Part shown: positions 1,053 to 6,650 of the stretch, piece after piece | How the letters are laid out: each line of letters begins with the position of its first letter | Numbering within the stretch: position 1 is the first letter of the stretch | The notes under the pieces: generated by a model | Told to the model about the DNA's origin: nothing | The model's database searches: none | The model's input: only the letters and a program-made list of their open reading frames with translations | Translations under genes and position numbers: made by a program | Source of the DNA: a virus | Lineage: Duplodnaviria; Heunggongvirae; Uroviricota; Caudoviricetes | Length of the DNA stretch: 6,937 bases | IMG/VR virus record: IMGVR_UViG_2617270978_000007 | Reading direction: 5' to 3' (one strand)

Positions 1053-1273
1053 GCCACACCTCCCAGACGCTTAAACATTTTTCCGGAGCAAAAGGCTATA
1101 AGCGGCATACTGATGCGGTAATTACGGCCCAGCGGTTCACAAATCACCTTCTGACATTCACGGTCAACCAGGCTGACACGTAGAACATGCCCTGCAGGCG
1201 TGGTGTACCACTGACCAGGACGAGGACAACGGAAAGTCTGATTGGTAAACCGTTTGAAAATATTCCGGATCAT
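1049..1273 (-). CDS. Hypothetical small protein (74 aa), Cys-containing
   Basis: ORF-track ORF; ATG at 1273..1271 overlaps the Rha ORF stop (ATGA). A purine-rich SD-like stretch lies upstream. Function unknown. Confidence 0.5.
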   Translation of the reverse strand: MIRNIFKRFTNQTFRCPRPGQWYTTPAGHVLRVSLVDRECQKVICEPLGRNYRISMPLIAFCSGKMFKRLGGVA

Positions 1274-2418
1274 TTGCGCCCCCTTACCTCTGAAGGGTTC
1301 AGCGACAAATTTATGAGACTGGCCAGTAGCGCCGCGTCGTTGATGCGGTCATACAGACTTACAGCCAGCGGGGATTCGGCTTTTGCCAACATGGGATAAA
1401 GCTGCTGCAGCCAGACCTGATGAATTGATGAAATGTAGGAATAGAGAACGCTGGCGTTATGTGCAACGTCGCTCAGTACAGAGGGATTTGAAAGCTGTTT
1501 CTCCATCTGGTTAAAGGCATTGATGTATGCCTCTTTGAACTGGGCAGCACGTTTACCCGTGAAACCCATAGCAAGAAACGCAAAGCCGTCGCGGGTTATT
1601 TGATAGCAAGGTAGTTTGCGGCCTGTGCAATCGGTGTAATCACTCACCGAAAAATTGCGGGAAGTGAATGATGCAGAGCATTCAAGCGTGCGGATCTTTT
1701 TCAGTACATCGTCATGACGTTTGGAGAAGAAGTTGGCAACAGCCAGGGATGAAGTAACAGCCTGACCATCAACGATGGCAATTTCAGGTTGAGTGAGGGT
1801 TGGGATCGTAGCCATGATGGCAGCCTCCGTTGACTGTGGAAAACTTCCACCACCGGAGCTGCGAAACTCACTGGTGGCAGACTGAACAGGGTTCGCAGTA
1901 CCGGCGTCAACGGAGACCGGCGAGCCTTTCGGCTCCCCTGCCCAGCCCACCATAATTCTGGCGTGCGTGAGCGCGGACGATAAAAAAGACGCTGGCGCGT
2001 CATATATCGCCGTTGACAATTCCGGGCTGCGACCCCCGGCACCCGCTTTATAAGGTGCCTGAGCAGTGTAACGTCCCGGAATTGCAGAATCAATATGCTG
2101 GTGGTCCTTCACACTCAACAAAATCACGCCTGAATTTCCACAAAGGACTAAAGCACTCATGCGGGTAGTCTTTGCGAAGATAGATAACGCGCTGTGTTTC
2201 TGGCTCCCAACGAATAACATGGACATAAAGCCCTCTTCCGTCACGAAACCAGCGGTTAAGTTCCTGCACAACTCGCCCCCCACAGTCAGGTAAAGTTCTC
2301 TGTGGTTACTTACAGCCAGGTGATTTGGTAATCTGCATTCATGCCGTAACAACAGGTGTTCAGCGACGCTGACCACCAGCTGTTGCGACAAACGGTTATT
2401 TGCCGTTAAACTATTCAT
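1270..2418 (-). CDS. Rha-family phage regulatory protein (382-aa ORF; the Rha domain is the C-terminal 181 aa, with an alternative internal start at 1815)
   Basis: The C-terminal half (MATIPTLTQPEIAIVDGQAVTSSLAVANFFSKRHDDVLKKIRTLE...) carries the F-x-KRH-D-x-VL-x-x-IR signature of Phage_pRha proteins. An internal ATG at 1815..1813 is preceded by GGAGG at 1824..1828. The full ORF starts at an ATG at 2418..2416 that overlaps the upstream stop (ATGA), and its N-terminal ~200 aa are low-complexity (Ala/Gly/Ser-rich) with no recognised domain. Boundaries are uncertain between 1270..1815 and 1270..2418. Confidence 0.55.
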   Translation of the reverse strand: MNSLTANNRLSQQLVVSVAEHLLLRHECRLPNHLAVSNHRELYLTVGGELCRNLTAGFVTEEGFMSMLFVGSQKHSALSIFAKTTRMSALVLCGNSGVILLSVKDHQHIDSAIPGRYTAQAPYKAGAGGRSPELSTAIYDAPASFLSSALTHARIMVGWAGEPKGSPVSVDAGTANPVQSATSEFRSSGGGSFPQSTEAAIMATIPTLTQPEIAIVDGQAVTSSLAVANFFSKRHDDVLKKIRTLECSASFTSRNFSVSDYTDCTGRKLPCYQITRDGFAFLAMGFTGKRAAQFKEAYINAFNQMEKQLSNPSVLSDVAHNASVLYSYISSIHQVWLQQLYPMLAKAESPLAVSLYDRINDAALLASLINLSLNPSEVRGRK

Positions 2419-2994: not shown

Positions 2995-3243
2995 TTACTT
3001 TTCATCTGATGAATCTTTAATCTTTTGAAAAATATCTGGACGTAATTTTTCTTTTGATATGCCAGTGGTCTTTTCAATGAATATCGAAAGCTTTGCAGGG
3101 GGACGCTTTTCTCTGTTCAACCAGTTCCAGACATGTTGTTGCTTTACTAAATGACCGCTGCTGGCTGTGAGCTTCCGAGCCAATTCTGATTGACCACCAG
3201 CCAGAGCGATTGCCTCCGATAAGGCTAATTGCTCAGGTGTCAT
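2995..3243 (-). CDS. Cro-like HTH transcriptional regulator (YdaS-like)
   Basis: 82-aa ORF divergent from the repressor. ATG at 3243..3241 with AAGGAG SD 6 nt upstream. N-terminal HTH-like segment (LSEAIALAGGQSELARKLTASSGHL). Size and position match Cro. Confidence 0.75.
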   Translation of the reverse strand: MTPEQLALSEAIALAGGQSELARKLTASSGHLVKQQHVWNWLNREKRPPAKLSIFIEKTTGISKEKLRPDIFQKIKDSSDEK

Positions 3244-3378: not shown

Positions 3379-4065
3379 GTGAAAACACTGGCAGAACGAT
3401 TAAAGATAGGTAGAGAGAAAGCTGGCATGAGCCAAGCTCAACTAGCTGAAAAAATTGGACTTTCACAACAATCTGTAGCCAAAATAGAGAATGGCGAAAC
3501 TCTACAACCGCGCAAAATTAAAGAAATTGCAAAAGTTTTAGGTGTATCACAAAAGTGGTTACAACTTGGTATTGAAGACAACGCATCCATACCTGATCTT
3601 GTTGTAAAAGAAGCAGAAAGCACCGCATTAGACCCCGATATTTTCGTAAACATTCCTGTTTTAGATGTCGAGTTATCGGCAGGTAACGGATGTCTGGCTG
3701 AAATAGTTGAATCAGCTATTGACTGGTTTCCGTTAAGAAGAGCAGATTTGAGAAAATCTGGCGTATGTGCATCTAATGCCAAGATCGTACAAATATGGGG
3801 GAACAGTTTATTACCGGTTCTCAATAATGGAGATCTTGTTGCCGTTGATATTTCTCAAACCGTTCCTATTCGTGATGGCGATCTTTATGCCGTACGAGAT
3901 GGTGTATTGCTAAGGGTTAAAATACTTATCAACTTACCTGACGGTGGCTTGATTCTTAGAAGCTTCAACAAAGATGAGTACCCAGATGAAATACTCACCT
4001 TTGAAGATAGACGAGCCAGAATTCATGTTATAGGTAGGGTATTCTGGTCATCGCGAACTTGGTAA
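3379..4065 (+). CDS. CI-like prophage repressor (XRE-type HTH N-terminal domain + LexA/S24 peptidase-like autocleavage domain)
   Basis: 228-aa ORF, GTG start at 3379 with GAGGGA SD-like sequence 7 nt upstream. N-terminal HTH (MSQAQLAEKIGLSQQSVAKIENGE). An Ala-Gly candidate cleavage site (LSAGNG), a GNSLLP segment with the candidate catalytic Ser and a downstream Lys (LLRVKIL) match the Ser/Lys dyad arrangement of LexA and lambda CI. Confidence 0.9.
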   Translation: MKTLAERLKIGREKAGMSQAQLAEKIGLSQQSVAKIENGETLQPRKIKEIAKVLGVSQKWLQLGIEDNASIPDLVVKEAESTALDPDIFVNIPVLDVELSAGNGCLAEIVESAIDWFPLRRADLRKSGVCASNAKIVQIWGNSLLPVLNNGDLVAVDISQTVPIRDGDLYAVRDGVLLRVKILINLPDGGLILRSFNKDEYPDEILTFEDRRARIHVIGRVFWSSRTW

Positions 4066-4938
4066 TGCATCGAAAAGCATTTCTTCAGAAATAATTTTAA
4101 GTTTTGCACCATTATCATCCCTATAAGATATAGCCTTTTCGATCTTCCTTCCGTGACTAGAGAATTTCCAATCACGGGAGGAAAGCGTCCCAATTACTAA
4201 AAAATCCAACTTTTGAGTAATTCCACTACTGATGTTCCCACCAGCATTTTTAATCAAATTTTCAACTACGGCTCTCTTTCCTGCAACAAAAGTGCCTGTA
4301 AGACAATAGGTTTTACCCTCTAACTCTATCGAAGCCCCTACATCAATAGGCAGCCTGGTCGCCAAACCATCCACCACCCCACTTTCCAAGTCACATCCTG
4401 TGAAGTCTACTAATGCCTTATGTAGAGTTAAACTCTCATCTTCAGTAATAACACCATCTTTAAGAATTTCCTTTACAAGTGCATAAAGTTTTTTTCCTGG
4501 GTAGTTGTTCTTCAAAGCTCCATTTTGCTCAAGCCACCAATTAAGATATCTTATTTCTTCTTGAGTTAAGTTCCGATCAGCAATTAATCCTTTACATAGT
4601 CCATTAAGTAAATGGACATCTACATCCTTGGAGTAAAAATCAATTTCAGGGATATCAAGAATTTCCCTCTGTATTTGGAGAAGGCTATTTTTAAGGTCAT
4701 CACGTTCTTCTGATGTGATTATTCCATCCGCAAGAATATCCGACACCCGAGCAGATAGACTTTTTATAACTCCATTATTGATAATCTGCTTTGCTTCAAG
4801 TAACCATGTATCTAAGTAAAGAACCTCCTCTTCACGGACAACTCCATCTGCAATGATTCCATCAATGATGCTAATCAAGTTAGCAAATAACTTGTCCCGG
4901 TTCTGTGTGTAATTAAAAGCGTAAAGCGCGTCTTCCAT
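4048..4938 (-). CDS. TerB-like repeat protein with C-terminal BRCT domain (296 aa); accessory (moron) gene
   Basis: ATG at 4938..4936 with GGAGG at 4943..4947 (MEDALYAFNYTQNRD...); the ORF-track start at 4968 lacks an SD. Four ~35-aa repeats carry the motif (I/L)ADG-x-(I/V)-x-x-EE (IADGVVREEE, LADGIITSEE, IADRNLTQEE, LKDGVITEDE), resembling TerB-type domains. The C-terminal ~85 aa (GKTYCLTGTFVAGKRAVVENLIKNAGGNISSGITQKLDFLVIGTLSS...AKLKIISEEMLFDAL) match the BRCT pattern of NAD-ligase C-termini. The stop at 4048..4050 overlaps the repressor 3' end by 18 bp. Confidence 0.8.
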   Translation of the reverse strand: MEDALYAFNYTQNRDKLFANLISIIDGIIADGVVREEEVLYLDTWLLEAKQIINNGVIKSLSARVSDILADGIITSEERDDLKNSLLQIQREILDIPEIDFYSKDVDVHLLNGLCKGLIADRNLTQEEIRYLNWWLEQNGALKNNYPGKKLYALVKEILKDGVITEDESLTLHKALVDFTGCDLESGVVDGLATRLPIDVGASIELEGKTYCLTGTFVAGKRAVVENLIKNAGGNISSGITQKLDFLVIGTLSSRDWKFSSHGRKIEKAISYRDDNGAKLKIISEEMLFDALPSSR

Positions 4939-4990
4939 ACAACCTCCTTTTTTTGATAATCCTTGCACTCCTTGGCTACTCGTTCAAACC

Positions 4991-5037
4991 ACATAAAGTT
5001 GTTGGCAACATTCAAAACCACAACTAAATTACAACTT
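4991..5037 (+). promoter_or_regulatory. OL-like operator region with predicted rightward early promoter (-35 TTGGCA 5002..5007, 17-bp spacer, -10 TAAATT 5025..5030)
   Basis: Shares ACATAAAGTTGT (4991..5002, identical to 3338..3349) and ACCACAACT (5017..5025, identical to 3308..3316) with the OR region, plus ACAACTT at 5031..5037. A perfect palindrome TGTTG-G-CAACA at 5000..5010 overlaps the candidate -35. The promoter is by eye only. Confidence 0.45.
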
Positions 5038-5121
5038 AAAGGTGTTAAGACAACGAACAGGCAGGACACCCACGAAGTAGCCGCCTGGGGCATATGAAGT
5101 CCAGGATGATTCGTTAGCAAC

Positions 5122-5145
5122 AAAAAAGCGCCCTACAGGACGCTT
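5122..5145 (-). terminator. Rho-independent terminator on the - strand (8-bp stem with one G.U pair, 4-nt loop, U-rich tail)
   Basis: The - strand RNA reads AAGCGUCC-UGUA-GGGCGCUU followed by UUUUGUU (from the + strand A-run 5122..5127). On the + strand the same stem has a C/A mismatch and no U-tract, so termination looks - strand specific. It lies about 240 nt downstream of the 144-aa gene stop and upstream of the OL region. Confidence 0.5.
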
Positions 5146-5146
5146 A

Positions 5147-5159
5147 GCTCTTTAACAAT
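5147..5159 (+). promoter_or_regulatory. boxA-like element (GCTCTTTAACAAT), candidate antitermination (nut-like) site about 120 nt downstream of the predicted early-left promoter
   Basis: GCTCTTTAACAAT at 5147..5159 matches the rrn-type boxA as recalled (GCTCTTTAACAA) and the lambda nut boxA core (CGCTCTT-A). It follows the 5126..5145 hairpin, giving a hairpin-then-boxA order like rrn leaders. Confidence 0.4.
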
Positions 5160-5381
5160 CTGGTCCCCATCAACAAGTAACTGATAACTTGAGGAGGTGT
5201 GAAATGCACAAAACAGAACCCAAAATCGTCGCGCCTAGCTACACAGATGAGTAAATTTATGAGTGGATGACAAAGAAGCTGGCAGCTATAAACCAGCTTC
5301 GTGAAGTGCTGTCTTATCGACAGGAAACAATAGACTCCTTAAAAAAACTGGATCAGGAAATCACGGTTTTATCACAGGATG

Positions 5382-5816
5382 TTACTTTAGATATTGTGCA
5401 GACAAATTAGGATCCCATTCATTTTCGTCAAAATCATCAAAGTGATGAATTTGTGATCTCCAGTCTCGATAATCTAAAAATTTCTGGGCGGTTACGCTTA
5501 TTTTATCAAGTGTGAGTTCATCCTGAATTGAAAGAAGAAGTTCATCAAATTTCATCTCATTAATCTGTTTTGGCATCCAGTGATGCTTCATCAGAATAAG
5601 GTGAACCAGAGCCTTTTTCCCATTCAACTGATTATAGGGAGTGCCGAATTTCTTCCGGTGCTCATGTAAGACAAGATCCAGAAGAGTAAGTAATGTTGCC
5701 CTTGATTCCACTTTGCTTATTTCGACTGATGACACTATCCCACTGATTTCAATGCCCCGATACTTTCCAACATTTTCACAGTGGGATTTGTACAACGTGT
5801 AGATATTACCGGACAT
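5382..5816 (-). CDS. Hypothetical protein (144 aa), orphan accessory gene antisense to the early-left direction
   Basis: ORF-track ORF; ATG at 5816..5814 preceded by AAGGAAA SD-like sequence. Acidic C-terminus (HHFDDFDENEWDPN), no obvious TM segment, no recognised domain. Flanked by direct repeats upstream (5832..5883) and a - strand terminator downstream (5122..5145). Confidence 0.62.
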   Translation of the reverse strand: MSGNIYTLYKSHCENVGKYRGIEISGIVSSVEISKVESRATLLTLLDLVLHEHRKKFGTPYNQLNGKKALVHLILMKHHWMPKQINEMKFDELLLSIQDELTLDKISVTAQKFLDYRDWRSQIHHFDDFDENEWDPNLSAQYLK

Positions 5817-5831
5817 TTCTTTTCCTTTTGC

Positions 5832-5883
5832 GTTGTTGGGGATAACCAGATTAACCGAATCCTTGTTGTTGGGGAATAACCAG
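5832..5883. repeat. Two direct repeats GTTGTTGGGGATAACCAG (5832..5849) and GTTGTTGGGGAATAACCAG (5865..5883) in the upstream region of the 144-aa gene
   Basis: Directly visible 18/19-bp repeat with one inserted A, 33 bp start-to-start, 16 to 67 bp upstream of the 144-aa gene start on the - strand. Shares GTTGTTGG with the OL palindrome region (4998..5005). The - strand reading contains TTATCCCCA, one mismatch from a DnaA box (TTATCCACA). Confidence 0.5.
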
Positions 5884-6104
5884 GTCCACCTCGCCTGATG
5901 TGGCTAAAAGCAGGCACATAACAGCTAAGTATTTTCAACCAGAGAGAATCCTTAGAGTTGTGGTGAATGCGCAGGCTGATGCGCGAAAGACATTGCAGCT
6001 ATTGCGGAAAAGAGCTGTTCGGCGGGGCAATTAAACGCCCGTGAGAGTCTGAAATAACCGCAAGCCGGAGATCAGCACCGGTCACCACAACAGCCACTGC
6101 TTTG

Positions 6105-6150
6105 GCGGTACCAGTTTGTACACTTGCTTCCGGCTGGTACCGCTCTTTTT
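6105..6150 (+). terminator. Hairpin with perfect 10-bp stem (GCGGTACCAG / CTGGTACCGC) followed by TCTTTTT; candidate intrinsic terminator or antitermination element overlapping a boxA-like CGCTCTTTTTACAAAAC
   Basis: Stem arms at 6105..6114 and 6134..6143, 19-nt loop, T-run at 6144..6150. The sequence CGCTCTTTTTACAAAAC at 6141..6157 resembles boxA. Located about 140 nt upstream of the 6288 gene start. Confidence 0.45.
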
Positions 6151-6239
6151 ACAAAACAGAGAAGAGCATCACCGGACGACGGGCTCATAACCCAATCCAT
6201 CCGGGCGGCTGCCACCGCAGGTGTTCTTCTCTGTTTTGT
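6151..6239 (+). repeat. 15-bp perfect inverted repeat (ACAAAACAGAGAAGA at 6151..6165; TCTTCTCTGTTTTGT at 6225..6239) flanking a 59-bp GC-rich spacer, in the leader of the downstream gene
   Basis: Directly visible. Arms are exact reverse complements and would form a long-range RNA stem or a symmetric protein-binding site. It ends about 50 nt upstream of the ATG at 6288. Confidence 0.55.
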
Positions 6240-6287
6240 GGAGAAACCAACCGACCTTGCAGGGTCGATATGATGAGGAGCAGCAAA

Positions 6288-6650
6288 ATGGCTAGCGTAC
6301 GCAGTACTGATGTGCAGGTATTTATCGTAGAACTGGACGGCGGCGTATTTGAAACCAAACTCGGCGCAGTTCTCAGTGAAGTCGCTTCCGGTGTGATGAA
6401 CACGAAAAACAAAGGTAAAGTCTCGGTCAATCTGGACATCGAACCGTTTGATGAGAACCGTGTGAAAATCAAACACAAACTCTCATATGTTCGCCCGACT
6501 AACCGCGGGAAAATTTCCGAAGAAGACACCACCGAAACGCCGATGTATGTCAATCGAGGTGGTCGCCTGACTATTCTGCAGGAAGACCAGGGACAATTAC
6601 TGACTCTTGCCGGTGAACCTGACGGAAAACTCCGCGCAGCAGGTCATTAA
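6288..6650 (+). CDS. Hypothetical early-left prophage protein (120 aa)
   Basis: ATG at 6288 with GAGGAG SD at 6275..6280 (7-nt spacer); MASVRSTDVQVFIVELDGGVFETKLGAVL.... The ORF-track start at 6102 would place the hairpin and inverted repeat inside the coding region and has no SD. Resembles, from memory only, small conserved early proteins of CPS-53-like prophages. Confidence 0.7.
   Translation: MASVRSTDVQVFIVELDGGVFETKLGAVLSEVASGVMNTKNKGKVSVNLDIEPFDENRVKIKHKLSYVRPTNRGKISEEDTTETPMYVNRGGRLTILQEDQGQLLTLAGEPDGKLRAAGH

Follow-up and report, generated by a model that had tools for sequence, protein, structure and literature searches.

Gene layout of the locus

The DNA analysed here is a stretch of 6,937 nt from a virus of the Caudoviricetes (IMG/VR record IMGVR_UViG_2617270978_000007; the whole stretch is referred to as the window). 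It is the immunity region of an Escherichia coli lambdoid prophage, and is 100% identical to a prophage adjoining mlrA in strain 2018-166. Our subject is a minus-strand gene of the ECs1072 family, located downstream of the early-left promoter (PL) of this prophage, together with the small plus-strand gene that converges on it. An earlier reading of the sequence (the original prediction) had described the locus as an orphan gene organised as an autonomous moron, antisense within the early-left transcription unit.

The minus-strand open reading frame (ORF) spans 5382..5816, encodes 144 amino acids (aa) from an ATG start, and is preceded by a Shine-Dalgarno (SD) sequence, AAGGA (5823..5827, minus strand), 6 nt ahead of the ATG. 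The sequence and the RefSeq annotation of the 100% identical prophage, which gives the ORF at identical coordinates, confirmed the predicted ORF with its own SD. Its stop codon is separated by 237 nt from an intrinsic terminator, and these 237 nt hold a plus-strand gene that was overlooked in the first reading (5204..5410), preceded by a strong SD, GAGGAGG (5191-5197, plus strand). This gene matches phrog_1744 (E 6e-35), encodes 68 aa in strain D2 and phage SfIV, and its product is ~40% identical to YdfC-family proteins (E 2e-9). The two genes converge, with a 3' overlap of 29 nt (5382..5410).

Alignment with D2 and SfIV revealed a G-to-T change in the window copy of the partner, converting E17 from GAA to TAA (5252-5254) and leaving fragments of 16 aa and 47 aa; the same alignment ruled out a frameshift. 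Judging by this premature stop at codon 17, the partner, the putative antidote half of the pair, is probably inactive in the window, with the ECs1072 gene intact. The partner is intact in D2, SfIV and most other carriers. It is unannotated in five genomes that are 100% identical over 5100-5900, among the matches listed.

The partner is preceded by an OL/PL-like region (left operator and promoter; 4988..5045, plus strand), in which the promoter TTGGCA (5002-5007) -17- TAAATT (5025-5030) has an operator-like site on either side, at 4988-5002 and 5031-5045. Promoter strength was assessed by scanning both strands of the whole window with a sigma-70-like position weight matrix (PWM), yielding 174 sites scoring at least 5 and 6 sites scoring at least 9. 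The PL site scored 12.61, the highest value on either strand, followed by 10.99. The operator-like motifs ACATAAAGTTGT and ACAACTTnnAGnTGT are common to 4985-5050 and the cro/cI intergenic region, which together with the top PWM score bears out the predicted OL-like region and its rightward promoter. The PL-like site is preceded, at a distance of 30 nt, by another good plus-strand promoter-like site (4972-4999, TTGGCT-16-TAAAGT, score 9.97), suggesting that the early-left promoters are tandem.

Consensus and PWM scans detected no plus-strand promoter of comparable strength between the ORF and yfdP, so that expression of the early-left genes most probably needs transcription crossing the ORF antisense. 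The layout of SfIV is alike, and the placement of the ORF antisense within the early-left unit was thus upheld.

Family, distribution and predicted structure

The 144-aa protein matches NCBIfam NF033230 ("ECs1072 family phage-associated protein") with 157.8 bits against a cut-off of 70, residues 4-144 aligning to profile positions 2-142, and PHROG 5286 (phrog_5286) with E 4.3e-90 over residues 1-144. An exhaustive HMMER search recovered 76 clusters at 50% identity. Homologues are known from Escherichia, Shigella, Salmonella, Klebsiella phages and Serratia, and the gene is found in phages SfIV, Kati and others. These relatives are mostly single-domain proteins of 143-157 aa, with one of 175 aa, and occur in prophage contexts. 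The gene itself is carried by 420 of 5426 complete E. coli genomes, always with at least 95% identity. It is thus no orphan: the family is catalogued yet uncharacterised and is widespread in prophages, which makes the gene a prophage accessory gene of an ordinary kind. What is new is the convergent partner, the antisense placement heading three lytic operons, and the exchangeable slot with signals provided by the backbone, as described below.

The AlphaFold2 model, built from a 57-sequence alignment, is an all-helical, soluble helical bundle (pLDDT, a per-residue confidence score, 93.6; pTM, a global confidence score, 0.88), and the protein is predicted to be cytoplasmic, with no long hydrophobic stretch in its sequence. 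A profile search of Protein Data Bank sequences returned nothing at E <= 10. The sensitive homology search and structure prediction proposed earlier as a check therefore delivered a family and a confident fold, the latter with no counterpart among solved or viral structures. Pfam, NCBIfam, PHROGs and PADLOC place the protein only in families of 'unknown function'.

Copies of the gene in E. coli show few differences, mostly synonymous, with nonsynonymous polymorphism (pN) well below synonymous polymorphism (pS), and the family is kept down to ~22% identity with invariant residues. This conservation, the very confident fold and the existence of a curated hidden Markov model all speak against the view that the ORF is not a functional gene and that antisense RNA alone matters. 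A good internal minus-strand promoter (5431 to 5404, see below) and the terminator would indeed give an antisense RNA over the partner, and we nevertheless regard that view as next to negligible in probability.

Convergent pairing with a YdfC-like partner

Nine distinct genomic contexts of ECs1072 members, down to ~25-38% identity, were examined. These were taken from contigs encoding homologues, as a pattern search of contigs gave only three loci, the family being too divergent. In eight of the nine contexts, the ECs1072-like gene is met tail to tail by a small opposite-strand gene, with a 3' overlap of 29 nt in the window and 35-269 nt in relatives, so that the geometry is similar even in distant members. 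The small proteins align together, share the N-terminal motif EPxIxAxGxTxEExxxW, and match either phrog_1744 or phrog_3501, with one protein matching both. Partners are present in L007 and L015 too.

In the phage collection, all 13 ECs1072-like records carry the partner in convergent overlap, and 22 of the 36 partner-bearing records lack ECs1072. This asymmetry, in which ECs1072 is always accompanied and the partner is often alone, fits an effector-antidote relation. Pairing and overlap persist at 18-39% protein identity and in three operon contexts, and are therefore not easily explained by one ancestral insertion.

Two small genes that are always together, one of them found alone far more often than the other, might also suggest a toxin-antitoxin (TA) or addiction module that stabilises the prophage. 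The genes are convergent and not co-transcribed, with no co-directional bicistronic operon; Pfam, NCBIfam and PADLOC gave no TA-family match; and the putative toxin is intact in genomes whose partner has a nonsense codon. An addiction module is on these grounds very improbable, and we tentatively read the pair rather as a lysogen-expressed effector with an antidote encoded on the lytic strand.

Antisense placement at the head of three lytic operons

In the contexts examined, the ECs1072-like gene is always antisense to a lytic operon and among its first few genes. The operon is that of PL in the window, D2, SfIV, L009 and L010; that of the rightward promoter (PR), between cro and the replication genes, in L011 and L015; and the late operon, between a Q-like gene and the holin gene, in ST64B and L013. 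SfIV, which was deposited as a complete phage genome and not a prophage remnant, has the layout seen in the window.

That members occupy the first few genes of the lytic operon, whichever operon it is, and that the partner is promoter-proximal, would also be expected if ECs1072 were a regulator of its own prophage's switch. In such a scheme, it would act as a brake, head-on to PL, PR or late transcription, with a protein that antagonises the YdfC/Sb50-like protein and damps leaky lytic expression, and with no anti-phage or host role; for the ST64B relative described below, the alternatives 'accessory or regulatory' were left open by Owen et al. (PMC7067206). The cassette is dispensable, however, as collinear prophages leave the slot empty or fill it with unrelated genes; the partner family functions in many phages that lack ECs1072; and no DNA- or RNA-binding fold is recognisable in the ECs1072 model. 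A switch regulator appears unlikely in the light of these observations, and the effector-antidote reading is retained in what follows.

An exchangeable antisense slot downstream of PL

Alignments of the window to prophages with alternative cargo showed that homology ends at ~5180 and restarts exactly at 5832. The exchanged unit (5180..5831) therefore consists of the partner and the ECs1072 gene with its SD, and same-flank prophages hold unrelated minus-strand genes in its place. The backbone comprises the terminator, the PL leader, the two direct repeats and the sequence up to ~5975. Alternative minus-strand cargos belong to phrog_1244 (171-173 aa), phrog_6315 (159-164 aa, with hydrophobic stretches) and phrog_3983 (167 aa), and equivalents of the slot were located at L017 3638-4153, L022 2528-3007, L023 2466-2960 and L024 2471-2974. 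At least four unrelated cargo families, including ECs1072, thus use the slot, and some prophages have no minus-strand gene there. The cargo is AT-rich, with a GC content of 0.36-0.41 vs 0.48-0.54 downstream, and the four cargo families include no recognised defence gene. From these alignments, the slot downstream of PL is, as far as sequence can tell, a hotspot for antisense cargo.

The description of the locus as moron-like holds, given that collinear relatives carry other genes or nothing at this position: the ECs1072 gene is present in some and replaced in others. It is also followed by a terminator (5126-5145), though this belongs to the backbone common to other cargos. The term 'autonomous' had to be abandoned, as the terminator and repeats are backbone features shared by unrelated cargos, the swapped part covers only ~5180-5831, and no promoter of the gene's own could be made out in the window.

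A slot that takes many unrelated cargos, a partner that is widely alone, and an ECs1072 gene that persists with a broken or absent partner would all accord with a generic lysogenic-conversion moron that acts on host physiology, the pairing being a recombination footprint beside ydfC-like genes. The retention of pairing and overlap at 18-39% identity in three operon contexts, and of both genes in 13/13 phage records, is harder to reconcile with such a footprint, which we consider quite unlikely. We therefore continue with the effector-antidote reading, and turn to the signals that flank the cassette.

Transcription signals flanking the cassette

The intrinsic terminator (5118..5145, minus strand) consists of an 8-pair stem with 5 G-C pairs (5145-5126, AAGCGTCCTGTAGGGCGCTT) followed by TTTTTTGTTGC (T6), with a local fold of -17 kcal/mol (z = -1.95). 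Its distance of 237 nt from the ECs1072 stop agrees with the ~240 nt predicted. It is present in the window, D2, str190 and A3019, and absent in PV15-279, the sole aligned sequence without a minus-strand cargo; its distribution in the alignment would fit a stop signal of the antisense slot. A more proximal terminator-like hairpin (5275..5300, minus strand; 9 pairs, weak T tract) lies 82 nt past the ECs1072 stop.

Upstream of the ORF, the two predicted 18/19-nt direct repeats are present at 5832-5849 (GTTGTTGGGGATAACCAG) and 5865-5883 (GTTGTTGGGGAATAACCAG). They have the form GTTGTTGGGGA(A)TAACCAG, differing by one inserted A, and far exceed chance expectation: an exact 11-mer plus 7-mer within 50 nt is expected ~1e-5 times per window by our estimate, and 0.03 chance copies of the repeat unit are expected. 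The repeats are conserved upstream of unrelated cargo genes. They were also considered as cI operators, and rejected as such because they are unchanged in prophages with other repressors.

The repeats bracket the sole promoter-like site upstream of the cargo, a weak candidate at 5848..5876 on the minus strand (-35 TTCCCC at 5876-5871, -10 TAATCT at 5853-5848) with a chance-level PWM score of 5.55. In distant relatives, extended -10-like TGnTATCCT sites are found 27-38 nt before the ATG. A candidate internal promoter with a score of 9.86, TTGACG-16-TAATTT (5404..5431, minus strand), is predicted near the 3' end of the ECs1072 gene, and could give rise to a ~270-nt RNA antisense to the whole partner and its ribosome-binding site (RBS), ending at 5126-5145 in the manner of OOP or sas.

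The PL leader (5047..5179, plus strand) is conserved in prophages of at least four immunity (repressor) types. A query comprising 4048-5816 matched 1423 E. coli genomes, and most of the weaker matches, among the matches listed, cover only this leader. Directly 3' of the terminator hairpin lies a boxA-like AGCTCTTTAACAA (5146-5158), with one mismatch to rrn-type boxA TGCTCTTTAACAA, which by this resemblance may serve in Nus-factor antitermination. An N-like gene is not apparent, and the leader at 5047-5179 is not significantly structured (z ~ -0.8). A put-like structured antitermination RNA was considered and dropped, as the PL leader (5037-5160) and the repeat region fold no better than shuffled sequence (z -0.9 to +1.3). 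Rfam detected no RNA element in 4900-6300.

Expression in lysogens and the ST64B relative

Phage ST64B contains an unannotated 144-aa ORF (L004 3281-3715) that scores 167.5 bits on NF033230. Its geometry is that of STMMW_20121/STMMW_20131 in Salmonella Typhimurium D23580, namely a 435-nt gene with a 71-nt overlap with a 360-nt gene and a distance of 161 nt from the holin gene. Owen et al. (2020, PMC7067206) report transcription of STMMW_20121 under nearly every condition, from a promoter and transcription start site of its own and antisense to lytic genes, and name it as a candidate for an accessory or regulatory role. In the same data its level was ~60-270 transcripts per million (TPM) in 16 of 17 conditions, vs 0.35-33 for the adjacent holin gene (PMC7067206). 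In E. coli Sakai, ECs1072 is included in a growth-phase array study (PMC2241611), and was therefore detected in uninduced cultures.

The STMMW_20121/STMMW_20131 (Sb50) pair resembles the pair in the window in its family, its convergent 3' overlap with a homologous partner, and its antisense orientation to lytic genes. It differs in lying in the late operon, between the Q-like gene and the holin gene, and not in that of PL, and in having ~32% identity over 64% of the query (tblastn). The family and the pairing were not described by Owen et al. (PMC7067206).

Proposed function of the gene pair

The arrangement at the locus is consistent with the following scheme. In the lysogen, cI would shut PL, and ECs1072 would be made leftward from a promoter in the repeat region that is weak or needs a further factor. 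The resulting RNA would run antisense over the partner coding sequence and RBS, and stop at the 5126-5145 terminator. The partner is the first PL gene, on the lytic (plus) strand, with ECs1072 on the lysogenic (minus) strand. On induction or superinfection, strong PL transcription would collide and pair with the ECs1072 transcript, and produce the partner protein. With low certainty, ECs1072 may interfere with incoming phages or modulate the host, and the partner may be an early antidote against self-harm during the prophage's own lytic growth.

The architecture itself, a two-gene cassette in an antisense slot past PL of an SfIV/e14-like prophage, is highly probable. The combined reading, in which that cassette holds a lysogen-expressed effector and a lytic-strand antidote, is tentative, and falls just short of an even chance. 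A defence role for ECs1072, argued by analogy, is doubtful though possible. The most specific version is rather unlikely: in it the two genes make up a prophage immunity module not recognised before, with ECs1072 as the lysogen-expressed anti-phage effector and the YdfC/Sb50-like product, transcribed from the lytic promoter, as protein (and antisense-RNA) antidote against auto-immunity on induction. If true, the slot past PL would be a hotspot at which SfIV/e14-like prophages in general carry single defence genes in antisense, and YdfC of the dicBF operon would be an orphan anti-defence gene.

Several results weigh against these functional readings. The ECs1072 fold matches no solved or viral structure; no Pfam match was obtained at E <= 0.01 for the protein, and none was consistent at E <= 0.1 in 57 relatives; and neither ECs1072 nor the partner matches a defence model of PADLOC-DB 2.0 at E <= 0.1. 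The argument for defence accordingly draws on position and analogy only. Upstream of ECs1072, consensus and PWM scans found no promoter above chance in the window. The partner is broken in the window and apparently absent in L008, so ECs1072 is tolerated without it, and the frequent occurrence of the partner family without ECs1072 means that the pairing could reflect insertion-site preference and not function. Finally, the ST64B partner reaches TPM 23-258 in lysogens (PMC7067206), and is therefore not strictly lytic-only. For all these reasons the effector-antidote reading is put forward at the tentative strength given above.

Comparison with known systems

The sieB/esc/sas genes of P22 and lambda occupy an equivalent antisense position in the PL operon. 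Like the ECs1072 gene, sieB (lambda, P22, Rac) is expressed in lysogens and lies backwards in the PL operon near the immunity region, and its self-protection is coupled to early transcription. SieB is a membrane protein, and ECs1072 lacks hydrophobic segments. There is no homology between the two, the Pfam SieB family being unmatched by ECs1072, and Esc is made from within sieB, with no convergent gene of its own. The relation of sas to sieB is mentioned in PMC7067206.

In Staphylococcus aureus prophages, the defence protein Tha, expressed in lysogeny, is inhibited by a small overlapping antisense gene, ith, whose product and transcription switch Tha off on induction (Rostol et al. 2024, PMC11087260). 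The present locus likewise has a small overlapping antisense gene beside a putatively lysogeny-expressed one. Tha, however, is a HEPN RNase, whereas no HEPN or other domain was detected in ECs1072; and in that system the cI operon carries the defence gene and the inhibitor is antisense, whereas here the large gene is the antisense one and the inhibitor role of the partner is putative.

YdfC is encoded in the dicBF operon of the Qin prophage of E. coli K-12, where its gene, like the partner, is small and promoter-proximal in a repressor-controlled, early-left-type operon (PMC5069750); proteins of the YdfC family are ~40% identical to the partner. Unlike the present locus, Qin-type operons lack an ECs1072 gene. 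Lambdoid morons (Juhala/Hendrix) and P2-like hotspots (Rousset et al. 2022, PMC9122126) share with the slot a variable content, conserved flanks, AT-rich cargo, a terminator after it and a prophage that otherwise aligns collinearly with its relatives. They differ in that here the promoter- and terminator-side signals belong to the backbone, and the cargos are always antisense.

Neighbouring genes of the immunity region

The original prediction had suggested that the ORF may act together with a TerB-BRCT gene on the same strand. The distance of 443 bp from the ORF to this gene (4048-4938, minus strand, ATG at 4938) was correct. Pfam sees only a BRCT domain in its product, with no TerB at E <= 0.01. 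Only 12 genomes have the two genes side by side, compared with 47 for the BRCT gene and 420 for ECs1072 overall. On these co-occurrence counts, the functional link did not stand, and a two-gene system of ECs1072 and the BRCT gene was rejected. The OL/PL region and the terminator stand between the two genes, and a mosaic junction at ~5047-5052, just past the start of PL, separates the cI module, with which the BRCT gene goes, from the early-left module, with which ECs1072 goes.

Among the PADLOC models, the BRCT protein weakly resembles the candidate defence model PDC-S48 (E 2.4e-7), and its gene is always found with this cI allele (47 genomes). Candidate leftward promoters lie inside the OL/PL region, at 5053 to 5026 and 4987 to 4959, and for this reason BRCT expression may be coupled to cI binding, as at the repressor promoter PRM.

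The gene order of the window begins on the left with a Rha/Ash gene (1270-2418, minus strand; a 382-aa ORF), followed by a YmfL/CII-like gene (minus strand), a Cro-like YdaS-family gene (2995-3243, minus strand), an operator region between the cro-like and cI-like genes, and the cI-like repressor gene of the HTH-S24 (helix-turn-helix) type (3379-4065, plus strand), which adjoins the BRCT gene. Beyond the cassette lies yfdP (6288-6650, plus strand), followed by yfdQ and the other early-left genes, which in the full prophage continue to xis and int.

Rfam detected a C4 antisense RNA (78.8 bits, gathering score 45; 1870-1957, minus strand) and isrK (58.7 bits, gathering score 50; 1982-2058, minus strand), both within the N-terminal half of the 382-aa Rha/Ash ORF. 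The match of this ORF to Pfam Phage_ASH (residues 117-212, ~nt 2070-1783) falls on the two RNAs; the alternatives are an ORF annotated with too early a start and an overlap between the protein and RNA annotations. The C4/isrK stretch, in the PR operon, resembles a P1/P7 immI-like (c4-ant) module.

Between the cassette backbone and yfdP, the segment ~5975-6100 is replaced relative to D2, SfIV, str190 and A3019. In SfIV the yfdP frame extends upstream to give a 226-aa ORF, and many genomes annotate a frameshifted gene there. A 25-nt inverted repeat (6151-6175 / 6215-6239, 84% complementary) lies just upstream of yfdP, and is kept in all aligned relatives.

Biological significance

Among the main sources of phage-resistance and host-modifying functions are the prophage genes that are on in lysogeny, the majority of which are still annotated as 'hypothetical'. 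The present analysis turns an apparent orphan into a defined target: a widespread family, present in ~8% of complete E. coli genomes, with a confident fold without solved relatives, an overlapping partner, and a fixed antisense position. ECs1072 and its partner are thus a reasonable target for experiments, and the antisense cargo slot past PL could be mined as the P2/P4 hotspots have been. The pairing also provides a first functional hypothesis for the YdfC-like proteins of dicBF-type operons. If the effector-antidote idea is true, the pair would be a Gram-negative counterpart of the Tha/Ith answer to prophage auto-immunity.

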